Source: Leptonemataceae bacterium (lineage in GTDB: Bacteria > Spirochaetota > Leptospiria > Leptospirales > Leptonemataceae). Taken from it: a DNA stretch of 64,000 nt. Shown piece by piece: positions 8,321 through 42,330 of this stretch. The position numbers were made by a program, and so were the translations under genes. The DNA lies in the NCBI GenBank assembly GCA_965227295.1, contig OZ245742.1, positions 3,552,001 through 3,616,000 of the forward strand, read 5' to 3'. Numbering within the stretch: the stretch's first letter is position 1; every line of letters starts with the position of its first letter. The notes below the pieces were generated by a model. The model was not told where the DNA came from and did not search any database. It saw only the letters and a program-made list of their open reading frames with translations.

Positions 8321-9097
8321 ATGGGCGGCGCACACGAAATAGAAGCAACGCTGGCCGAAGCCTTTCGCAACTATAAGACGATCGTACTGCGCTCGCGCCT
8401 GCTGCGTGATCGCGGCGAAGAAAAGCTCGAGATCATCGTCGATCGCCTGTTGCAGTTTCTGAATCGTCACGATCTGGCCGGTCCCATCTATGCCGCGGTG
8501 CGCGAGTTAGTGCAGAACGCATCCAAGGCGAATCTCAAACGCATCCTCTTTGAAGATCTGGGCGTGGATCCCGACGACGACTCGCGTTACCAGGAGGGCA
8601 TGCAGATCTTTCGGCGCCAGCTCATCCGAACGAAACTCAAGGGCTACGCCCCGCGCATCGTGGAGAAACGCCTCTACTTTAAGATTCGTTTCGAGTACAG
8701 CCCCGAGGTCATTGTCGCCACCGTGCGCAACCCCTTCGAACTCTACGAGGCCGAAGAAGCCCGCATCCGCCAGAAATTCGTGCAGGCCCGGGGCATCGAC
8801 AATCTCTACGACTTTTACTTAAAGCACGGCGATACCGTGGAGGGCGCGGGCATGGGCATTGCGATGGTGCTGATCCTGCTGAATCAGGCCGGCTTTGCGA
8901 GTCGCTGCCTCAGTATCTTTACGGACCGTCGAGCCGGCGAAACAGTCTCGCGAATGATTCTACCGCTCCGCGAAGATTATCGCCCGCCCCGCGAACGTTT
9001 CGTGGACGAACAGGAACGACGGGGAGTGACGGCCGAGGCGCTGCGTGATATGATGACCCGCGGCGAAGTGCGGATACCGATTTTCGAAAATCGCTGA
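8321..9097 (+). CDS. Stand-alone histidine-kinase-like ATPase (HATPase_c/GHKL)
   Basis: N-box ELVQNASKAN and G-box EGAGMGIAMV; paralogous to 30949-31665 and 31712-32467. Confidence 0.7.
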   Translation: MGGAHEIEATLAEAFRNYKTIVLRSRLLRDRGEEKLEIIVDRLLQFLNRHDLAGPIYAAVRELVQNASKANLKRILFEDLGVDPDDDSRYQEGMQIFRRQLIRTKLKGYAPRIVEKRLYFKIRFEYSPEVIVATVRNPFELYEAEEARIRQKFVQARGIDNLYDFYLKHGDTVEGAGMGIAMVLILLNQAGFASRCLSIFTDRRAGETVSRMILPLREDYRPPRERFVDEQERRGVTAEALRDMMTRGEVRIPIFENR

Positions 9098-9139: not shown

Positions 9140-9670
9140 CGAACCGCTCTTGAATTACCGGAAACGCTCAGGTTTTTTGCGCCCGCCCCGAATCGTGCAG
9201 TAAGTGGCGGCCATTGTACATTAAGGCTCTTATGGGTACAGCTGGTTCCAGCTAACGAGCGGAGGTCATGCCGGGGAATGTGGTAAGGCGCACCGGAACG
9301 GCGTCTTCGTCGCAAGATTCGCCTCGGTAGCTGAGTCGCACAATCAGCGTCCGGGTCGAACGCAGTATTCTCAGCAAAACGAAACTCCACAACTCCCGCT
9401 CAACTGTAGCAATAAAGCCCCCTTCACAATTCCGCGACTTGCTTCATGTGTCTCACGGCAAACGCTACGAGACACAGCTCTTGAACTACCGGAAACGCTC
9501 AGGTTGTTTGCGCCCGCCCCGAATCGTGAAGTAAGTGGCGGTCAGTGTACATTAAGGCTTTTATGGGTACGGCTGGTTCCAGGCGACGCCTGGAGGTTAT
9601 GCCGGGGGACGTGGTAAGGCGCACCGGAACGGCGTCTTCTTCGTAAAGATCCAACTAGCGAATCCGCACC
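9140..9670. repeat. Array 1 of ~330-bp non-coding repeat (copy A complete, copy B partial)
   Basis: Anchor ctcttgaa at 9147 and 9478 (period 331); shared core ttaagg..ttatgggtac.gctggttccag..ggagg..gccgggg..tggtaaggcgcaccggaacggcgtcttc. Confidence 0.92.
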
Positions 9671-9722
9671 CCGGAGCCCCGCTCTATCCGTGAGGTGAGC
9701 CGTGGCCAACGGCTTAGAGGTT

Positions 9723-10124
9723 TTATTGCGGCGAAACGCGATTGAGCAATTGTTCAATGCCCGAGCGGTCGTCGATGAGGTCGTGGACGCGTTCGGCCAG
9801 CTTGCGTTCCAGGGGATAGACGTGTTTGCGCCGGGTGAGCATGCGCTCCAGGGTCTGGGTGATCATGTCGCGCTCATCAGCGCCCATGGCGTGGACCGTG
9901 GCCTTGAGTTCGCTGGAGTAGAGTTCCGCCTGGAACTCGTCCACGGGGGTTTCCAGTAGCTTGCGCACACGGCCGCACTCCGGCCCTTCCATGGAAAGCG
10001 AGGTGATCCAGTCTTCCAGGACCTGGCGATCCTCTTCCGTCGGTCGGTTGCCGTCGGCCCAAGCTTCAGCCAGCATCACTTTCAACAGAATTTCTTTGCG
10101 ACAATCTTCTTGCGTGAAGGACAT
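9723..10124 (-). CDS. TerB-like family protein
   Basis: LLKVMLAEAWADG..EED motif resembles the TerB fold; 133 aa. Confidence 0.55.
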   Translation of the reverse strand: MSFTQEDCRKEILLKVMLAEAWADGNRPTEEDRQVLEDWITSLSMEGPECGRVRKLLETPVDEFQAELYSSELKATVHAMGADERDMITQTLERMLTRRKHVYPLERKLAERVHDLIDDRSGIEQLLNRVSPQ

Positions 10125-36452: not shown

Positions 36453-36755
36453 ATGGCGAAGAAGAAAGCTAAGAAGAAGACCAAAAAGAAGGTCGCCAAG
36501 AAGAAGAAAAAGGTGACCAAAAAAAAGGCTAAGAAAAAAGCCAAAAAGAAGGCCAAGAAAAAGGCCAAAAAGAAAGTAAAGAAAAAAGCCAAAAAAAAGG
36601 CTAAGAAAAAGGCTAAAAAGAAAGCCAAGAAAAAAGCCAAAAAAAAGGCTAAGAAAAAGGCTAAAAAGAAAGCCAAGAAAAAAGCCAAAAAGAAGACCAC
36701 GCGGAAGAAGACCGCAAGAAAATCACAGCCCGCAGCGGGCTCTCTGCTTTTCTAA
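36453..36755 (+). CDS. Histone H1-like Lys/Ala-repeat protein
   Basis: 100 aa made mostly of KKKA units; AGGT upstream; AT-rich upstream region. Confidence 0.8.
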   Translation: MAKKKAKKKTKKKVAKKKKKVTKKKAKKKAKKKAKKKAKKKVKKKAKKKAKKKAKKKAKKKAKKKAKKKAKKKAKKKAKKKTTRKKTARKSQPAAGSLLF

Positions 36756-39393: not shown

Positions 39394-40191
39394 TTACTTC
39401 ACCTCGTTCAATCCCCAATCATAGGACAGGTACTCCAGTTCCACGTTCCCCCGGTTCGCGCGGAGGTCTGTTTGCACGTCCGGGGCGAGGTACGGCAGGA
39501 TCACATCGATGATCGCGGACTCCGGCGCCCCGGGATCCTTTACAAAATCTTCGCGGTACCAATCGAGAATCTTTGATACATACAGCGTACGGGATGTCGC
39601 GTCGTAGCGAGAGTAGCGCGGGTCACGCAGCCAGGCTTGCATTTGATCGTCGAGCTGTGCATCGAGGCGCGGGCCCTCGTAGGCTTCATGGCGGAGCGGC
39701 GGGCAACCGACGGACGCGCAATTGATGGCGCCGTGATGGCGAAAGTCCTGGTAGACCGGCCGCAGGATTTCGTGTTCCACATCGTCCAGGGTGTAGCGTT
39801 GGTCGTGAATGGGAAACTCCCAGGTCCGCCAGATCGTGCGGCCGAAAACGACGCCGAGGTAGAGGCTGCCGAACAAATGCAGCTCGTTGATGCTGTCCAC
39901 GCGTTCGTTGTCGGCGATGAGCTTGAGGGTATGGGCGTTGTAGACGTTCAACCAGAAGGCGATGCGATCGTTGCCGTCCAGGGACGTCGGGTCCGTGGAG
40001 GCGAGTTGGGCGATGTAGTGTTCCAGGCGCGGATCCTCCTGGAGCGCGCCGTAGTCTTTCACAAAGCCATGCGCGAGGTGATCCTGCAGAAGTTCGGTAA
40101 ACAGGGCGTGCCGATCGCCGATCGCGGAAGCAGGAGTAGCTGCGAGTGCGAGGAAGGCTCCGGCGAGGACGACGCGGATCAGGTGGGGCAT
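39394..40191 (-). CDS. DUF547 domain secreted protein
   Basis: AFWLNVYNA, TLDDVEHEILR, AINCASVGCPPL, SKILDWY..DF, YDWGLN. Confidence 0.92.
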   Translation of the reverse strand: MPHLIRVVLAGAFLALAATPASAIGDRHALFTELLQDHLAHGFVKDYGALQEDPRLEHYIAQLASTDPTSLDGNDRIAFWLNVYNAHTLKLIADNERVDSINELHLFGSLYLGVVFGRTIWRTWEFPIHDQRYTLDDVEHEILRPVYQDFRHHGAINCASVGCPPLRHEAYEGPRLDAQLDDQMQAWLRDPRYSRYDATSRTLYVSKILDWYREDFVKDPGAPESAIIDVILPYLAPDVQTDLRANRGNVELEYLSYDWGLNEVK

Positions 40192-40289: not shown

Positions 40290-40517
40290 ATGGCCTACAT
40301 GGCAGTCGGTTCCAGGCAAATCCTCTTCTCGGACACCGCGGCCCCCGCCGCGTCCCGGGACGATATCCGCGAAGTCGCCAACGTCAGCGACAACACCCAG
40401 GCAGAAGCTTCTACACCCGCGGCCACCCCGCAGCCGGAAAACCAACCGGCCACGCCGCCGCCTGCCGCCCCGCCTGCCGCGGGCGATCCCGGTTTCAATC
40501 TCGACGTGTCCGCGTAA
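40290..40517 (+). CDS. Small Pro/Ala-rich protein with C-terminal GxxLDxxA motif
   Basis: 75 aa ending GFNLDVSA; TATCCT 6 nt before the ATG. Confidence 0.5.
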   Translation: MAYMAVGSRQILFSDTAAPAASRDDIREVANVSDNTQAEASTPAATPQPENQPATPPPAAPPAAGDPGFNLDVSA

Positions 40518-40533: not shown

Positions 40534-41392
40534 CGAACCGCGGCTTTTGAACTACGGGAAAGTTTTTGTTTGTTCAAGCACGCCCCGAATCGTGGAATCT
40601 GGATTAAGACTTTTATGGGTACAACTGGTTCCAGCTCACGAGCGGAGGTCAGGCAGGGGAACATGGTAAGGCGGACCGGAACGGCGTCTTCGCCGCAAGA
40701 ATCGCTATGGTAGCTGAGTCGCACAACCAGCGTCCGGGTCGAACGCAGCATACTTCACAAAACGAAACTCCACAACTCCCGCTCAGCTGTAGCCAAAAAA
40801 ATGGCATTTCACGGTTGCGCAACTTACCTTGTGTGTCTCACGGCAACGTGAGCGAACCGCGACTCTTGAACTCCGGGTAAAGCTCGGGTGATTCGTAAAC
40901 GCCCCGAATCTTGGTGTAAGTTGAGGCCAGTCTGGGTTAAGACTTGTATGGGTACAACTGGTTCCAGCTCACGAGCGGAGGTTATGCCGGGGAACGTGGT
41001 AAGGCGGACCGAAACGGCGTCTTCGCCGTAAGAAACGCTACGATATTCCGAACCGCACAACCAGCGTCCGGGTCGAGGCGGACAATCTCAGCAAAACGAA
41101 TCACCACAACTCCCGCTTCGCTGTAGCCAAATCAACCACCCCTTCACGATTGCGCAACTTACCTTCTGTGTCTCACGGTAAACGCCACGAAACACAGCTC
41201 TTGAACTACCGGAAACGTTTTATTCGTTTGCACACGCCCCCGAATCGTGGTGTAAGTAGCGGCCAACGTAAATTAAGCCTTTTATGGGTACGGCTGGTTC
41301 CAGCTGACGCGCGGAGGTTATGCCGGGGAACGTGGTAAGGCGGACCGGAACGGCGTCTTCGCCGCAAGAAACGCAATGGTAGCCGCATCGTA
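40534..41392. repeat. Array 2 of ~330-bp non-coding repeat (copies C, D complete; E partial)
   Basis: Anchor ct[ct]ttgaact at 40544, 40863 and 41198 (periods 319 and 335); same core as array 1. Confidence 0.92.
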
Positions 41393-41402
41393 TAAGTGAG
41401 AT

Positions 41403-42242
41403 TCAGAACTTCAGTGTGATCTCGTAACCCTGATGCTTGCGCATGTTGATGACGCGGTTGCCTTCGAAGATCAGATACTGCCCTTTGATGCCGAGCAATA
41501 GCCCGCTGATCTCCGATTCTTTATCGAAGCCGACGGACTTTACTTTTTCGGGATAGGACTTCACGGGATACTGGATCGCCGTCTTGCGGCCGCCCGCAAC
41601 GGCGTACTGTTTCAGATCTGCCGGTAGCAGTTCGATGATTTTAGCTTTCGCGGCGAGGAGGTCGCGATCGGCGCGTTCGTCCTTCAGCATTTTGCGCCAG
41701 TCCGTGCGGTCGGTGAGATGTTTCTTGAGCGCGACCTCGATGAGCCCGGCCGTGTAACGATTCGGTGTCTTCGCGAGCGGCACGGCCGCGTGGGCCCCCT
41801 GATCGATCCAGCGCGTGGGAACCTGGCTGCCGCGGGTGATGCCGACCTTTACATCGCTCGAAAGCGCCAGGTAGACGACGTGTTCGACCAGGCAATGTTT
41901 CTTCGACCACTCCATGTCCCGGGATTCTCCTGCCTGGGCCCGGCAGAGCTCCGGACGCAGGACGCAGTCGCTCGTTTCCGGCGCCCTCTGGAAGCATGGA
42001 TAGCAGTAACCCTGCGCAAAGGATTTGTTCGTTGCCCGGCCGCAACGAATGCAGTAGATCTTCCCACTGTAACTGAGGATGAGCGGCTTCTTCGAACCGA
42101 CGGCCTTGTTCATTTCGAACTCCGCACTCTTGCGAACTTTGCCCACCCCCGCCGGTTGTTCCAGGGCCAGGGTGTAGCGGACCGGGTCCTTCGCGTTCTT
42201 GCGTTCGGTTTTCATTTTTCGGATGGTACCGGTGATTTGCAT
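41403..42242 (-). CDS. DUF2797 domain protein
   Basis: CIRCGR.T.KSFAQGYCYPC, HVVYLA, KVGITR...PTRWIDQGA, GIKGQYL. Confidence 0.9.
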   Translation of the reverse strand: MQITGTIRKMKTERKNAKDPVRYTLALEQPAGVGKVRKSAEFEMNKAVGSKKPLILSYSGKIYCIRCGRATNKSFAQGYCYPCFQRAPETSDCVLRPELCRAQAGESRDMEWSKKHCLVEHVVYLALSSDVKVGITRGSQVPTRWIDQGAHAAVPLAKTPNRYTAGLIEVALKKHLTDRTDWRKMLKDERADRDLLAAKAKIIELLPADLKQYAVAGGRKTAIQYPVKSYPEKVKSVGFDKESEISGLLLGIKGQYLIFEGNRVINMRKHQGYEITLKF

Positions 42243-42330
42243 GATCGTCCTCGCATTCACGGGTGGGAACATCCGCGAATGCGAGGACAGAAGCCCGAAG
42301 CGCGCGGAGCGTCCAGAGTTTCTCAGGACG

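Follow-up and report, generated by a model that had tools for sequence, protein, structure and literature searches.

The window, that is, the whole 64,000-nt stretch of DNA analysed here, contains two arrays of a repeat of about 330 bp, with 2.6 tandem units at 40541-41392 and 1.6 at 9144-9684, whose copies were placed with an nhmmer profile built from 41 full-length genomic units. Each unit joins two unrelated modules head-to-tail, M1 (core of ~130 nt) and M2 (core of ~75 nt), with variable linkers between them, and an optional palindrome of ~60 nt, H, can follow M1, either at the M1/M2 junction or at the end of an array. The features of both loci are as follows (window coordinates).

8321..9097, + strand: gene without Pfam family that precedes the first array, stop codon 46 nt ahead of unit A
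9144..9474, + strand: unit A, full length (profile 2-331: linker, M1, linker, M2); nhmmer 340.9, blastn 78.7% to unit D
9183..9309, + strand: M1 core of unit A, the species-specific module with the most invariant boxes (M1 alignment)
9337..9417, + strand: M2 core of unit A, the genus-wide element of ~75 nt (M2-core alignment)
9475..9684, + strand: unit B, partial (profile 2-214: linker and M1); nhmmer 185.3
9657..9690, + strand: remnant of H, left arm and loop only, right arm degraded (blastn-short at genome positions 3561657-3561690; sequence reading)
9723..10124, - strand: convergent gene downstream of the first array (own ORF call)
40290..40517, + strand: ORF upstream of the second array, 75 aa, Pro/Ala-rich, no Pfam family (own ORF call; Pfam)
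40541..40859, + strand: unit C, full length, 319 nt; nhmmer 291.7
40722..40802, + strand: M2 core of unit C, C-rich and G-poor, GC skew to -0.45 (M2-core alignment; composition profile)
40860..41194, + strand: unit D, full length, 335 nt; nhmmer 325.5
41055..41135, + strand: M2 core of unit D, GC skew to -0.56 (M2-core alignment; composition profile)
41195..41392, + strand: unit E, partial (profile 2-198: linker and M1), array end; nhmmer 202.9
41403..42272, - strand: convergent DUF2797 gene downstream of the second array (E = 2.3e-91)

The lengths of units C and D, as placed with the profile, reproduce exactly the tandem periods of 319 and 335 given in the original prediction, and Tandem Repeats Finder reported the same region (40603-41385) with a period of 336, 2.3 copies, 81% matches and a score of 1008. 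The distant homologous copies that had been announced were confirmed at 9144-9684, unit D being 78-84% identical to units A, B, C and E by blastn. Unit C carries a 14-nt deletion within M1, visible in the M1 alignment. Unit B represents an array end and passes into the left arm of the decayed H palindrome, and the end of unit E is followed, after 10 nt, by the stop codon of the convergent ORF. The second array begins 23 nt past the end of the upstream ORF, which has a weak coding score, and fills the gap between this ORF (40290-40517, + strand) and the convergent gene (41403-42272, - strand), as had been described. The arrays of the window have ordinary neighbours, namely genes for a PALP enzyme, for DUF547 and DUF2797 proteins and for proteins without family, and the reported lack of a neighbouring transposase or nuclease gene holds for the genes flanking the arrays.

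A search of the whole genome with the unit profile extended the family far beyond the window and returned 317 profile matches in 116 strand-specific clusters, which cover ~73 kb or 1.2% of the 5.94-Mb genome; the number of loci is 114, since two of the clusters echo, on the opposite strand, loci that had been counted before. The clusters start at profile positions ~2, ~23-43 or ~150-190 and end at ~166-216 or ~329-331, all of them module borders, and about 50 of the 116 end at 166-216, as unit B does. The array ends are ragged. Within one array all modules run head-to-tail on one strand, and in every unit the GC skew is positive in M1 (+0.24 to +0.37) and negative in M2 (-0.39 to -0.56). MITEs have terminal inverted repeats, target-site duplications and a related autonomous element; in this family all module matches sit in arrays and no larger element carries the modules. 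In two variant loci only, an inverted M2 core replaces part of M1 (z = 11.6); the idea that M1 is an inverted M2 was rejected for the family, the global comparison of the consensus being not significant (z = 1.1) and the resemblance limited to an inverted 17-mer shared by profile positions 86-102 and 258-274, with a local z of ~3.4. Other abundant repeat families are also present in this genome.

The palindrome H is tightly associated with the arrays, 46 of its 47 loci lying within 120 nt of one. Its orientation is that of the array in all 34 strict copies, in 25 of which the flank upstream of H ends at profile 171-180. The stem of the palindrome is 21 bp long and its GGA/GGA internal loop is invariant, and compensatory pairs are seen at 13:60 (GC10/TA3/TG6/CG6), 14:59 (CG13/GC12) and 20:53 (CG19/TA8/TG2).

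The positions of the arrays with respect to genes, taken from our own crude ORF caller, are biased toward gene ends. Convergent ORFs enclose 54 of the 116 clusters, where 18% would be expected (p = 5e-12), and divergent ORFs enclose nine; 107 of the 116 have a gene 3' end on one side or both. In 57 of 78 cases the stop codon of a same-sense upstream ORF is no more than 25 nt away from the start of the cluster. Between co-directional genes 24 clusters are in the sense orientation and 29 in antisense. Arrays that open with M1 begin at the stop codon of a same-sense gene, and those that open with M2 tend to lie far from an oppositely oriented upstream gene. A partner gene was looked for among 429 flanking proteins, and no family recurs beside the arrays (the largest cluster has 10 members). 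A role in replication orientation was considered and discarded, the array strand tracking the gene strand weakly and KOPS-like polarity being absent.

The arrays do not code for protein, as the original prediction had held for the few copies in the window. Any given frame is open in 0-8 of 121 units and 3-periodicity is absent, and the longest conserved box shows no relaxation at third positions, in line with the lack of a clear codon-position bias noted before. That the arrays are a decayed gene for a tandem-repeat protein of ~110 aa per unit, or decayed arrays of small ORFs, is hardly credible, since stops occur in all frames, unit lengths fall in all three residues modulo 3 (47, 41 and 33 units), the consensus ORFs reach 83-92 aa, below the mean of 103 for shuffles, and the ~114 loci sit in gene-end gaps; the modal unit length of 330 nt, which equals 110 codons, and the occurrence of the 22-nt M1 box in three protein-coding metagenome sequences, unrelated and judged coincidental, are what speaks for it. 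A short ORF opening at an ATG of M1 was discarded: the A of this ATG ranks among the most variable columns, and the downstream box is conserved at all three codon positions.

The claim that the unit falls outside the described RNA families proved correct: Rfam gave nothing real for the whole window at gathering thresholds or for the array at E<=10. Self-cleaving ribozymes (hammerhead, twister and others) occur in satellites with tandem units of ~330 bp, and no ribozyme family was found over the array, on either strand, at the latter cutoff. A CUGANGA-like word in M1, which we take to resemble the hammerhead core motif, was set aside when inspection by eye showed the rest of the core to be missing. 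The alignment of 109 units (330 columns) gave with RNAalifold a consensus of just -13.9 kcal/mol on the + strand and -12.0 kcal/mol on the - strand, and single units fold no better than their shuffles (z = +1.42, for the + strand, and +0.41). A scan of all column pairs of the units revealed no helix with real compensatory change, and the cross-species alignment of the M2 core contains no covarying pairs. One candidate, a 12-bp helix between profile positions 179-193 and 256-267, was rejected, its 3' side having four alleles and its 5' side being fixed.

These results bear directly on the interpretation that had been put forward for the arrays, an arrayed scaffold-and-guide RNA or ssDNA element in which the variable windows would serve to guide a nuclease or recombinase whose gene lies at another place. 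The arrays share with the omegaRNA/HEARO RNAs (IscB, TnpB) and the IS110 bridge RNAs the interruption of conserved segments by variable ones, here of 10-20 nt. Those RNAs are single genes beside their effector and have strongly covarying scaffolds, and HEARO is represented in Rfam, whereas the present family has more than 200 copies and no adjacent effector, consensus fold, covariation, excess stability or Rfam match. The search for effector genes covered Y1, TnpB-type, IS110 and RT genes. TnpB-type and Y1 (PF01797) genes gave no match in the genome, a single contig that is 93.6% complete by markers; Y1 was also absent from two sister genomes of the same genus, and control genomes did match. 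The sole IS110 gene is 8.6 kb from the nearest array and the 10 RT genes are at least 6.5 kb away, and we know of no precedent for more than 200 guide genes without an effector. In favour of guides, exact 14-mer matches elsewhere in the genome exceeded those of mononucleotide shuffles, a weak control that does not preserve codon-like words, in three of five windows (73/42, 144/37 and 27/11.5), an excess that is only partly accounted for. The matches are isolated, most of their loci (136 of 148) are within predicted coding DNA and no remnant of the family is among them, and phage and plasmid collections yielded no match to whole arrays. A guide function is very improbable. What stands of the original reading is a non-coding unit outside the known RNA families in which conserved boxes alternate with variable windows; its structured RNA with guides does not, and it falls by a refuting outcome that the original prediction itself had named, the lack of significant covariation.

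Transcription of the arrays into largely unstructured RNAs, either independent sRNAs or products derived from 3' UTRs, would dispense with a scaffold. M2 would then act as promoter, M1 as body and H as 3' end, and the boxes would bind a protein or other RNAs, for instance as a sponge. Several observations agree with this arrangement: M2-first arrays leave room for a promoter and M1-first arrays continue from a same-sense stop codon, H always comes after M1 and in the same sense, G-T wobbles outnumber A-C mismatches on the + strand of H (15 vs 5, own tally of the pair table) and the + strand folds less than its shuffles. However, arrays between co-directional genes are antisense in 29 cases and sense in 24, no sigma-70-like promoter was detected by a scan within the array, and H is not followed by a T-run and so does not qualify as an intrinsic terminator. 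A terminator scan gave three consensus sites against 2.1 expected, one of them within the array on the - strand and none on the + strand. In addition, the M2 core in a sister genome has a terminator on one side and the promoter of the following gene on the other, and nothing there indicates a transcript of its own. We consider this account improbable. Readings by eye of the M2 core as a sigma-70, sigma-54 or ECF promoter, against what we take to be the consensus motifs, were abandoned on account of spacing that did not fit.

The distribution of the modules differs among the genome studied (G000) and its two sister genomes (G001 and G002). The M1 model finds at least 150 sites in G000 and none in either sister genome, and the same is true of the H core, with 32 matches in G000. 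The M2-core model matches at least 110 sites in G000, 26 in G002 and 16 in G001, and none in 39 other genomes of the family. The M2 core is thus a dispersed element of ~75 nt present in all three genomes of the genus, and its boxes are conserved across the three species at unrelated loci. In an exact-pattern scan of 185,579 species genomes it appeared in MAGs of the same genus only, besides one likely chance match.

The alternation of near-invariant blocks and variable windows, first noticed in the copies of the window, holds genome-wide. Many columns show four deviants or fewer in ~210 copies, over which the mean pairwise divergence is 21%. The gamma shape parameter is 0.69, at a tree length of 12.5 substitutions per site. 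The boxes measure 6-22 nt and the windows adjacent to them reach more than 100 versions, the junction windows being the most variable, with 114 distinct versions in 147 copies at profile 22-42 (window 1 of the original prediction) and 134 in 175 at profile 164-186. The variable windows assort independently, and nearly all of the mutual information falls inside single windows, a pattern indicative of recombination between copies. Units are closer to each other within arrays (mean distance 0.136) than between arrays (0.215), and 51 of 128 have their nearest neighbour in the same array, 46 of them at the adjacent position; for nearest neighbours in different arrays the distance is 0.068 at the least, with a median of 0.138. 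The family reached its ~114 gene-end gaps some time ago, because units of different loci never differ by less than 6.8%, and the arrays grew later by local tandem duplication, since adjacent units differ by as little as 1.8%.

During this growth the conserved boxes have stayed unchanged in place while the intervening windows drifted. There are 105 columns without rare variants, vs 57 expected, and rare variants avoid the boxes. In 25 young within-array pairs, with conservation judged on the remaining arrays alone, a difference is present in 13 of 2016 cells of conserved columns and in 253 of 2589 cells of variable columns (p = 6e-33), which makes the rate in the boxes 15-fold lower. Old family polymorphisms that survived partial gene conversion, or biased conversion back to the consensus, could also produce this depletion. 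Boxes that change so little even between young duplicates argue for constraint in place.

The main competitor is a purely selfish and largely immobile repeat, which spread once in the ancestry of the species, now changes by unequal recombination only, and whose boxes are kept uniform by gene conversion among more than 200 copies and are of no use to the cell. Such a history agrees with the restriction of the full unit to one species and of the M2 core to one genus, with the occupation of 'safe' gene-end gaps in both orientations, with the lack of a recurring partner gene nearby, with the recombination seen in the independently assorting windows together with the evident homogenisation within arrays, and with the presence of other abundant repeat families in the same genome. 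The enrichment in convergent gaps is also expected of purely selfish insertion, because such sites are harmless. Conversion alone, however, explains neither the contrast between boxes with four deviants at most and windows with more than 100 versions nor the 15-fold lower difference rate in young duplicates, and the M2-core boxes are kept across three species at unrelated loci. We regard this account as unlikely, if serious.

Taken together, the arrays are most probably local clusters of a mosaic intergenic repeat restricted to this lineage; the repeat would be a DNA element of the BIME/NIME/BOX kind, without RNA scaffold or guides. The fuller explanation, a BIME/NIME-like mosaic repeat with conserved boxes and a role at gene ends, is favoured with less assurance. 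Whether the boxes are protein-recognition sites under host-level constraint is a matter on which we are evenly divided; in that case the boxes and the H hairpin would be recognised by at least one protein encoded elsewhere. That the element works with a protein encoded elsewhere, as originally suggested, is likely, although DNA is the more probable target of recognition, or else unstructured sequence together with the H hairpin. The arrays might be kept through a gene-end role, for which transcription termination or insulation, or the handling of DNA topology where genes converge, would be the likeliest forms, each unit providing a hairpin and, on either strand, an unstructured stretch rich in C. 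By analogy with REP/BIME elements, action of the arrays in gene-end termination or topology can be proposed tentatively.

A bolder and rather doubtful version of the mosaic-repeat reading takes the more than 100 arrays as chromosome-wide binding platforms for a putative sequence-specific protein or complex. Its recognition sites at gene ends would be the boxes that are invariant in M1 and M2 and the hairpin with the GGA/GGA loop, and its task would be to end or insulate transcription, or to relieve torsional stress between converging genes. Such a dedicated system would have arisen in a single species when the 75-nt element, older and shared by the genus, was coupled to a new module, and would have spread by a mechanism needing no RAYT.

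Mosaic repeats between genes are common, and what they are for has been debated for decades. The known families are mostly small hairpins, so that constraints on structure and on sequence are inseparable in them; long unstructured modules with fixed boxes offer a clean case for distinguishing repeats that are bound and used from those merely tolerated. The family also captures one step of repeat evolution, in which a 75-nt element, with 16-26 model matches in the sister genomes, was joined to a module and a palindrome, and the joined element was amplified to 1.2% of the genome without a recognisable REP transposase. For annotation, ~114 loci can be taken off the list of candidate novel RNA genes.

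Among known systems, the arrays resemble the REP/BIME elements of Enterobacteria and Pseudomonas (REPIN-RAYT) in their high copy number, lineage restriction, extragenic position and mosaic construction with linkers, and H is likewise a G+C-rich imperfect palindrome kept by compensatory changes. In PMC3733652, REPs are placed mostly downstream of genes, between unidirectional or convergent ORFs, and the present arrays have the same placement. The proposed roles of REP/BIME elements in termination, mRNA stability and supercoiling (PMC3733652, PMC2817692, PMC3333891) fit the position of these arrays. On the other hand, REPs are palindromes of 20-40 bp with a GTAG/CGTC tag, whereas M1 and M2 are non-palindromic and H is optional; REP/BIME units alternate in orientation and those described here are all head-to-tail. 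The RAYT/Y1 gene of REP systems is absent from G000 and both sister genomes, although CGTC-type REPs, according to PMC3733652, also lack a dedicated transposase. The 21-bp stem of H is far longer than the 8-9 bp reported there for the CGTC families (PMC3733652).

The mosaic module arrays of Neisseria, the NIMEs, are described in PMC1797815 as long non-coding arrays of 50-150-bp modules, with dynamic length and a regular wave of base composition, and in these respects they are close to the arrays studied here. NIMEs use more than 100 RS families, set apart by a conserved 20-bp inverted repeat, dRS3, a recombinase target, whereas the present arrays have two modules in fixed order, with conserved bodies and the joints as the most variable parts. 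No conserved short inverted repeat of the dRS3 type was found at the module borders. The BOX element of Streptococcus pneumoniae has the organisation boxA-(boxB)n-boxC, with modules of 45-59 nt and a predicted stable fold. BOX and the STAR elements of staphylococci share with our arrays a modular intergenic layout, a variable number of internal modules in tandem and the lack of a linked transposase. For STAR, PMC3532100 describes direct repeats interspersed in intergenic DNA. Their motifs are short, with spacers of ~40 nt, and the comparison with these arrays is by description. Set beside all these systems, the family is new, with modules that are atypically large and non-palindromic and boxes that are unusually well preserved.

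The tandem array predicted at 40534-41392 was returned as a real one by Tandem Repeats Finder (period 336, 2.3 copies, 81% matches, score 1008). A profile of the ~330-bp unit, made from 41 full-length genomic copies and then mapped onto the window, together with blastn, reproduced all the periods, copies and near-invariant blocks of the original prediction, unit D being 78-84% identical to units A, B, C and E (blastn, window). The features are placed as follows:

9144-9474, unit A
9475-9684, unit B, partial
9657-9690, decayed copy of H (an optional ~60-nt palindrome), at the end of array A-B
40541-40859, unit C, 319 nt
40860-41194, unit D, 335 nt
41195-41392, unit E, partial

Array C-E contains no H. 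Both arrays fill a gap between convergent ORFs in our own ORF calls, as had been claimed for array C-E, and the genes next to them are unremarkable (for a PALP enzyme, DUF547, DUF2797 and proteins without family). The ORF at 40290-40517 (+), upstream of array C-E, encodes a Pro/Ala-rich product of 75 aa that matches no Pfam family, and its coding score is weak (10.5). Should this ORF be spurious, the DUF547 gene at 39394-40191, in opposite orientation, becomes the upstream neighbour of the array, and the gap would no longer be a convergent one. Elsewhere in the window, a 100-aa ORF (36453-36755, +) is built of 24/48/72-nt tandem repeats (Tandem Repeats Finder rows 36455-36699); its Lys/Ala-rich product matched no Pfam family and may be a basic DNA-binding protein, for example a histone-H1-like one.

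Copies of the unit form a family spread over the whole genome. The host genome is a single contig (C1) of 5,938,550 bp and 59.8% G+C, where 144 matches were listed by a genome search with the unit, blastn gave 318 HSPs in 109 clusters, and the profile gave 317 matches (72,970 nt in total) in 116 strand-specific clusters, equivalent to 114 loci since two of the clusters echo other counted loci on the opposite strand. Context statistics were taken over all 116 clusters, echoes included, with ORFs from our simple codon-usage caller (4668 ORFs, 87% of the genome covered). Gaps between convergent ORFs hold 54 clusters, as against 861 of the 4667 gaps genome-wide (p = 4.6e-12), divergent gaps hold 9 (p = 0.002), and in co-directional gaps 24 clusters lie in sense and 29 in antisense. 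At least one gene 3' end is touched by 107 of the 116 clusters; 57 of the 78 with a same-sense upstream ORF begin within 25 nt of its stop codon, and 45 of the 83 with a convergent downstream ORF finish within 30 nt of its stop codon. The association of array strand with replichore is as weak as for genes. Intergenic repeats are unusually plentiful in this genome: two further abundant, G+C-rich ones with many short palindromes (C1:777583-777824 and C1:5268747-5268892) give 167 and 147 blastn HSPs of ~99 nt and ~79% identity, none of them within 150 nt of unit arrays; by eye the two repeats have several words in common and may be one family.

A closer inspection of the cluster boundaries showed starts concentrated at profile positions ~2, ~23-43 and ~150-190 and ends at ~166-216 and ~329-331, so that the unit is better described as two modules with variable linkers between them: M1 (about 40-170) and M2 (about 185-331, with a core at ~198-275), both of which are also present as solo copies. 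The linkers at 15-33 and 150-188 (e.g. window 40874-40892 and 41009-41047) appear alike in direct orientation, judging by eye and by two short blastn self-hits of low significance (E 0.16 and 6.7), and the second has an extra small hairpin-like insert. H lies within 120 nt of an array at 46 of its 47 blastn loci and has the orientation of the array in all 34 strict-pattern copies; its upstream flank ends at profile 171-180 in 25 of these, at 198-200 in 4 and at 90 in 1, with no match in 4, and on its 3' side there is either M2 or, at array ends, unrelated DNA. By eye, H resembles in its left arm the beginning of M2, and a linker duplicated locally in inverted orientation may be the origin of H. 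Two variant units (C1:776285-776590 and C1:1378564-1378855) have the 3' half of M1 swapped for an inverted M2 core, which makes them true long palindromes (their own M1 against reverse-complemented M2, z = 11.6). Outside them M1 and M2 have only an inverted 17-mer in common, which may be the crossover point. The GC skew of every unit is positive in the 3' half of M1 (+0.24 to +0.37) and turns negative in M2 (-0.39 to -0.56), and G+C falls to 48-55% within the unit; the swing thus yields a C-rich, G-poor, unstructured stretch in M2 of a + strand transcript and in M1 of a - strand transcript. Rho prefers C-rich, G-poor, unstructured RNA, which these stretches, as predicted from composition, would resemble.

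The claim that the unit is non-coding held. Stop-free units number only 0-8 of 121 in each of the six frames, unit lengths fall into mixed classes modulo 3 (47, 41 and 33), the longest ORFs of the tandem consensus (83-92 aa) are under the shuffle mean (103), and the longest invariant box is kept at every position, third codon positions not being relaxed; a coding sequence is for practical purposes ruled out. The suggestion of an arrayed scaffold-plus-guide RNA akin to omegaRNA/HEARO or IS110 bridge RNA was, as regards a structured scaffold, not sustained. Rfam gave no match over the whole window at gathering scores, and only chance rows over the array at E<=10. RNAalifold on 109 full units gave -13.9 (+) and -12.0 (-) kcal/mol over 330 columns, hardly any of which pair in the consensus, and unit D (-96 kcal/mol, where shuffles average -102.5; z = +1.42) and its complement (z = +0.41) are no more stable than shuffles. 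A covariation scan of all column pairs in 317 copies (stacks of at least 4 pairs, at least 85% canonical) returned only short stacks of invariant columns with a few compensatory sequences at most; the most tempting long-range helix fails, its 5' side being fixed while its 3' side has four alleles. Mutual information lies nearly all inside the variable windows. H is the single exception to this lack of structure: it folds into a hairpin with a 7-nt loop, and the 21-bp stem contains an internal loop, GGA/GGA, that does not vary. Three of its pairs alternate among G-C, C-G, T-A and T-G types; besides selection on the hairpin, this may reflect correction of the palindrome arms by each other, or the origin of H by a local inverted duplication.

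The segments proposed as guides are indeed variable, with 114 distinct versions in 147 complete copies, and 112/214, 89/214, 134/175, 101/201, 134/177 and 102/190 in the others. Exact 14-mers from five windows were compared with the array-masked host genome, with mononucleotide shuffles as control: three windows gave an excess (73 matches vs 42, 144 vs 37 and 27 vs 11.5) and the other two did not exceed the shuffles. The matches of these three windows fall at 49, 78 and 21 loci, 43, 74 and 19 of them in predicted coding DNA and none a family remnant. The excess may be an effect of composition, because mononucleotide shuffles lose codon-like words. Whole arrays had no match in phage and plasmid collections. 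As for partner genes, there are no Y1 transposase matches in the host or in its two same-genus sister genomes (G001 and G002) and no TnpB-type matches in the host, whose one IS110-type gene is 8.6 kb from the nearest array and whose ten reverse-transcriptase ORFs (e.g. C1:32821-33507, 3743265-3743951, 4553832-4554518 and 5028782-5029468) are all at least 6.5 kb from any array. Several of these ORFs have identical scores and lengths (four of 456 aa, two of 624 aa, two of 472 aa), which suggests recently active retroelements, possibly group II introns. Clustering of the 429 proteins encoded by the two nearest predicted genes to the left and right of every array gave no family of more than 10 members, so no gene accompanies the arrays. 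The reading of the family as a DNA-level repeat, not a guide-RNA array, is well supported.

In blastn of unit D against 40 relatives, only the two sister genomes were hit, each by a single weak match that lies in M2. A sequence-only M2-core model (3 window copies and 8 sister-genome copies) matched at least 110 times in the host, 26 in G002 and 16 in G001, with no match in 39 other genomes (20 other genera of the family), while an M1 model from the five window copies matched at least 150 times in the host and the H core pattern 32 times, neither being found in the sisters. Apart from one probable chance match, an exact-pattern M2-core scan of one genome per species hit only two MAGs, which are apparently the sister genomes (the coordinates of one locus are those of a G001 match). 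In a metagenome scan, a 22-nt M1 box matched just three times, each time by coincidence within a coding sequence. The sisters carry the M2 core as a lone ~75-nt element or, in some places, as an inverted doublet; one copy has a gene's terminator on one side and on the other the promoter region of the next gene, which looks like that for ribosomal protein L21. In some copies (L034, L038, L048) inserts of 25-45 nt separate conserved boxes at two fixed points, and the L034 and L038 inserts can form hairpins. The same boxes are conserved across the three species, and the alignment of the M2 core predicts no secondary structure (-2.3 kcal/mol, 0 covarying pairs).

For the 128 units that have 280 or more aligned columns, the mean distance is 0.136 within arrays (74 pairs) and 0.215 between arrays (8054 pairs). 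The nearest neighbour is in the same array for 51 of the 93 units with an available partner, adjacent in 46 of the 51, and the closest pairs (1.8-5%) are all adjacent; between arrays the nearest neighbour is never closer than 0.068 (median 0.138). The spread to different loci is thus old, and the arrays still grow by local duplication. The total length of a GTR+G tree of 109 units is 12.5 substitutions per site, with the gamma shape at 0.69; over ~210 copies the minor-allele count per column runs from 1 (5th percentile) to 106 (95th), and 105 columns are without rare variants where 57 are expected. In 25 independent young within-array pairs (mean distance 0.056; columns classed from other arrays only), differences occur at 13 of 2016 conserved cells (0.6%), 112 of 2265 intermediate (4.9%) and 253 of 2589 variable ones (9.8%), a depletion in the conserved cells with p = 6e-33. 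The main rival explanation is a selfish, immobile repeat homogenised by conversion, and some of the young-pair differences may not be new mutations but older polymorphisms that survived partial conversion. The box pattern over independent loci and three species is difficult to account for unless the boxes are constrained or conversion is strongly biased.

The depletion in young pairs and the conservation across species point to the boxes and H as putative recognition sites, constrained in place, and we propose that proteins encoded elsewhere would read them. From position and composition only, we infer that the arrays may be kept for a role at gene ends, where they would terminate or insulate transcription or handle topology between converging genes.

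Functionally the family belongs with the mosaic intergenic repeats REP/BIME, NIME, BOX and STAR, with which it has in common high copy number, restriction to a lineage, location at gene ends, modularity, variable array length and a G+C-rich palindrome. REP elements are linked with gyrase or IHF. The family described here is not a member of any of these: its modules are long, non-palindromic and head-to-tail, it has neither the GTAG/CGTC-tagged short REP nor a RAYT of REP/BIME, and the conserved short inverted repeat at the joints of NIME is absent. The regular wave of composition along the arrays is comparable to that described for NIME arrays (PMC1797815).
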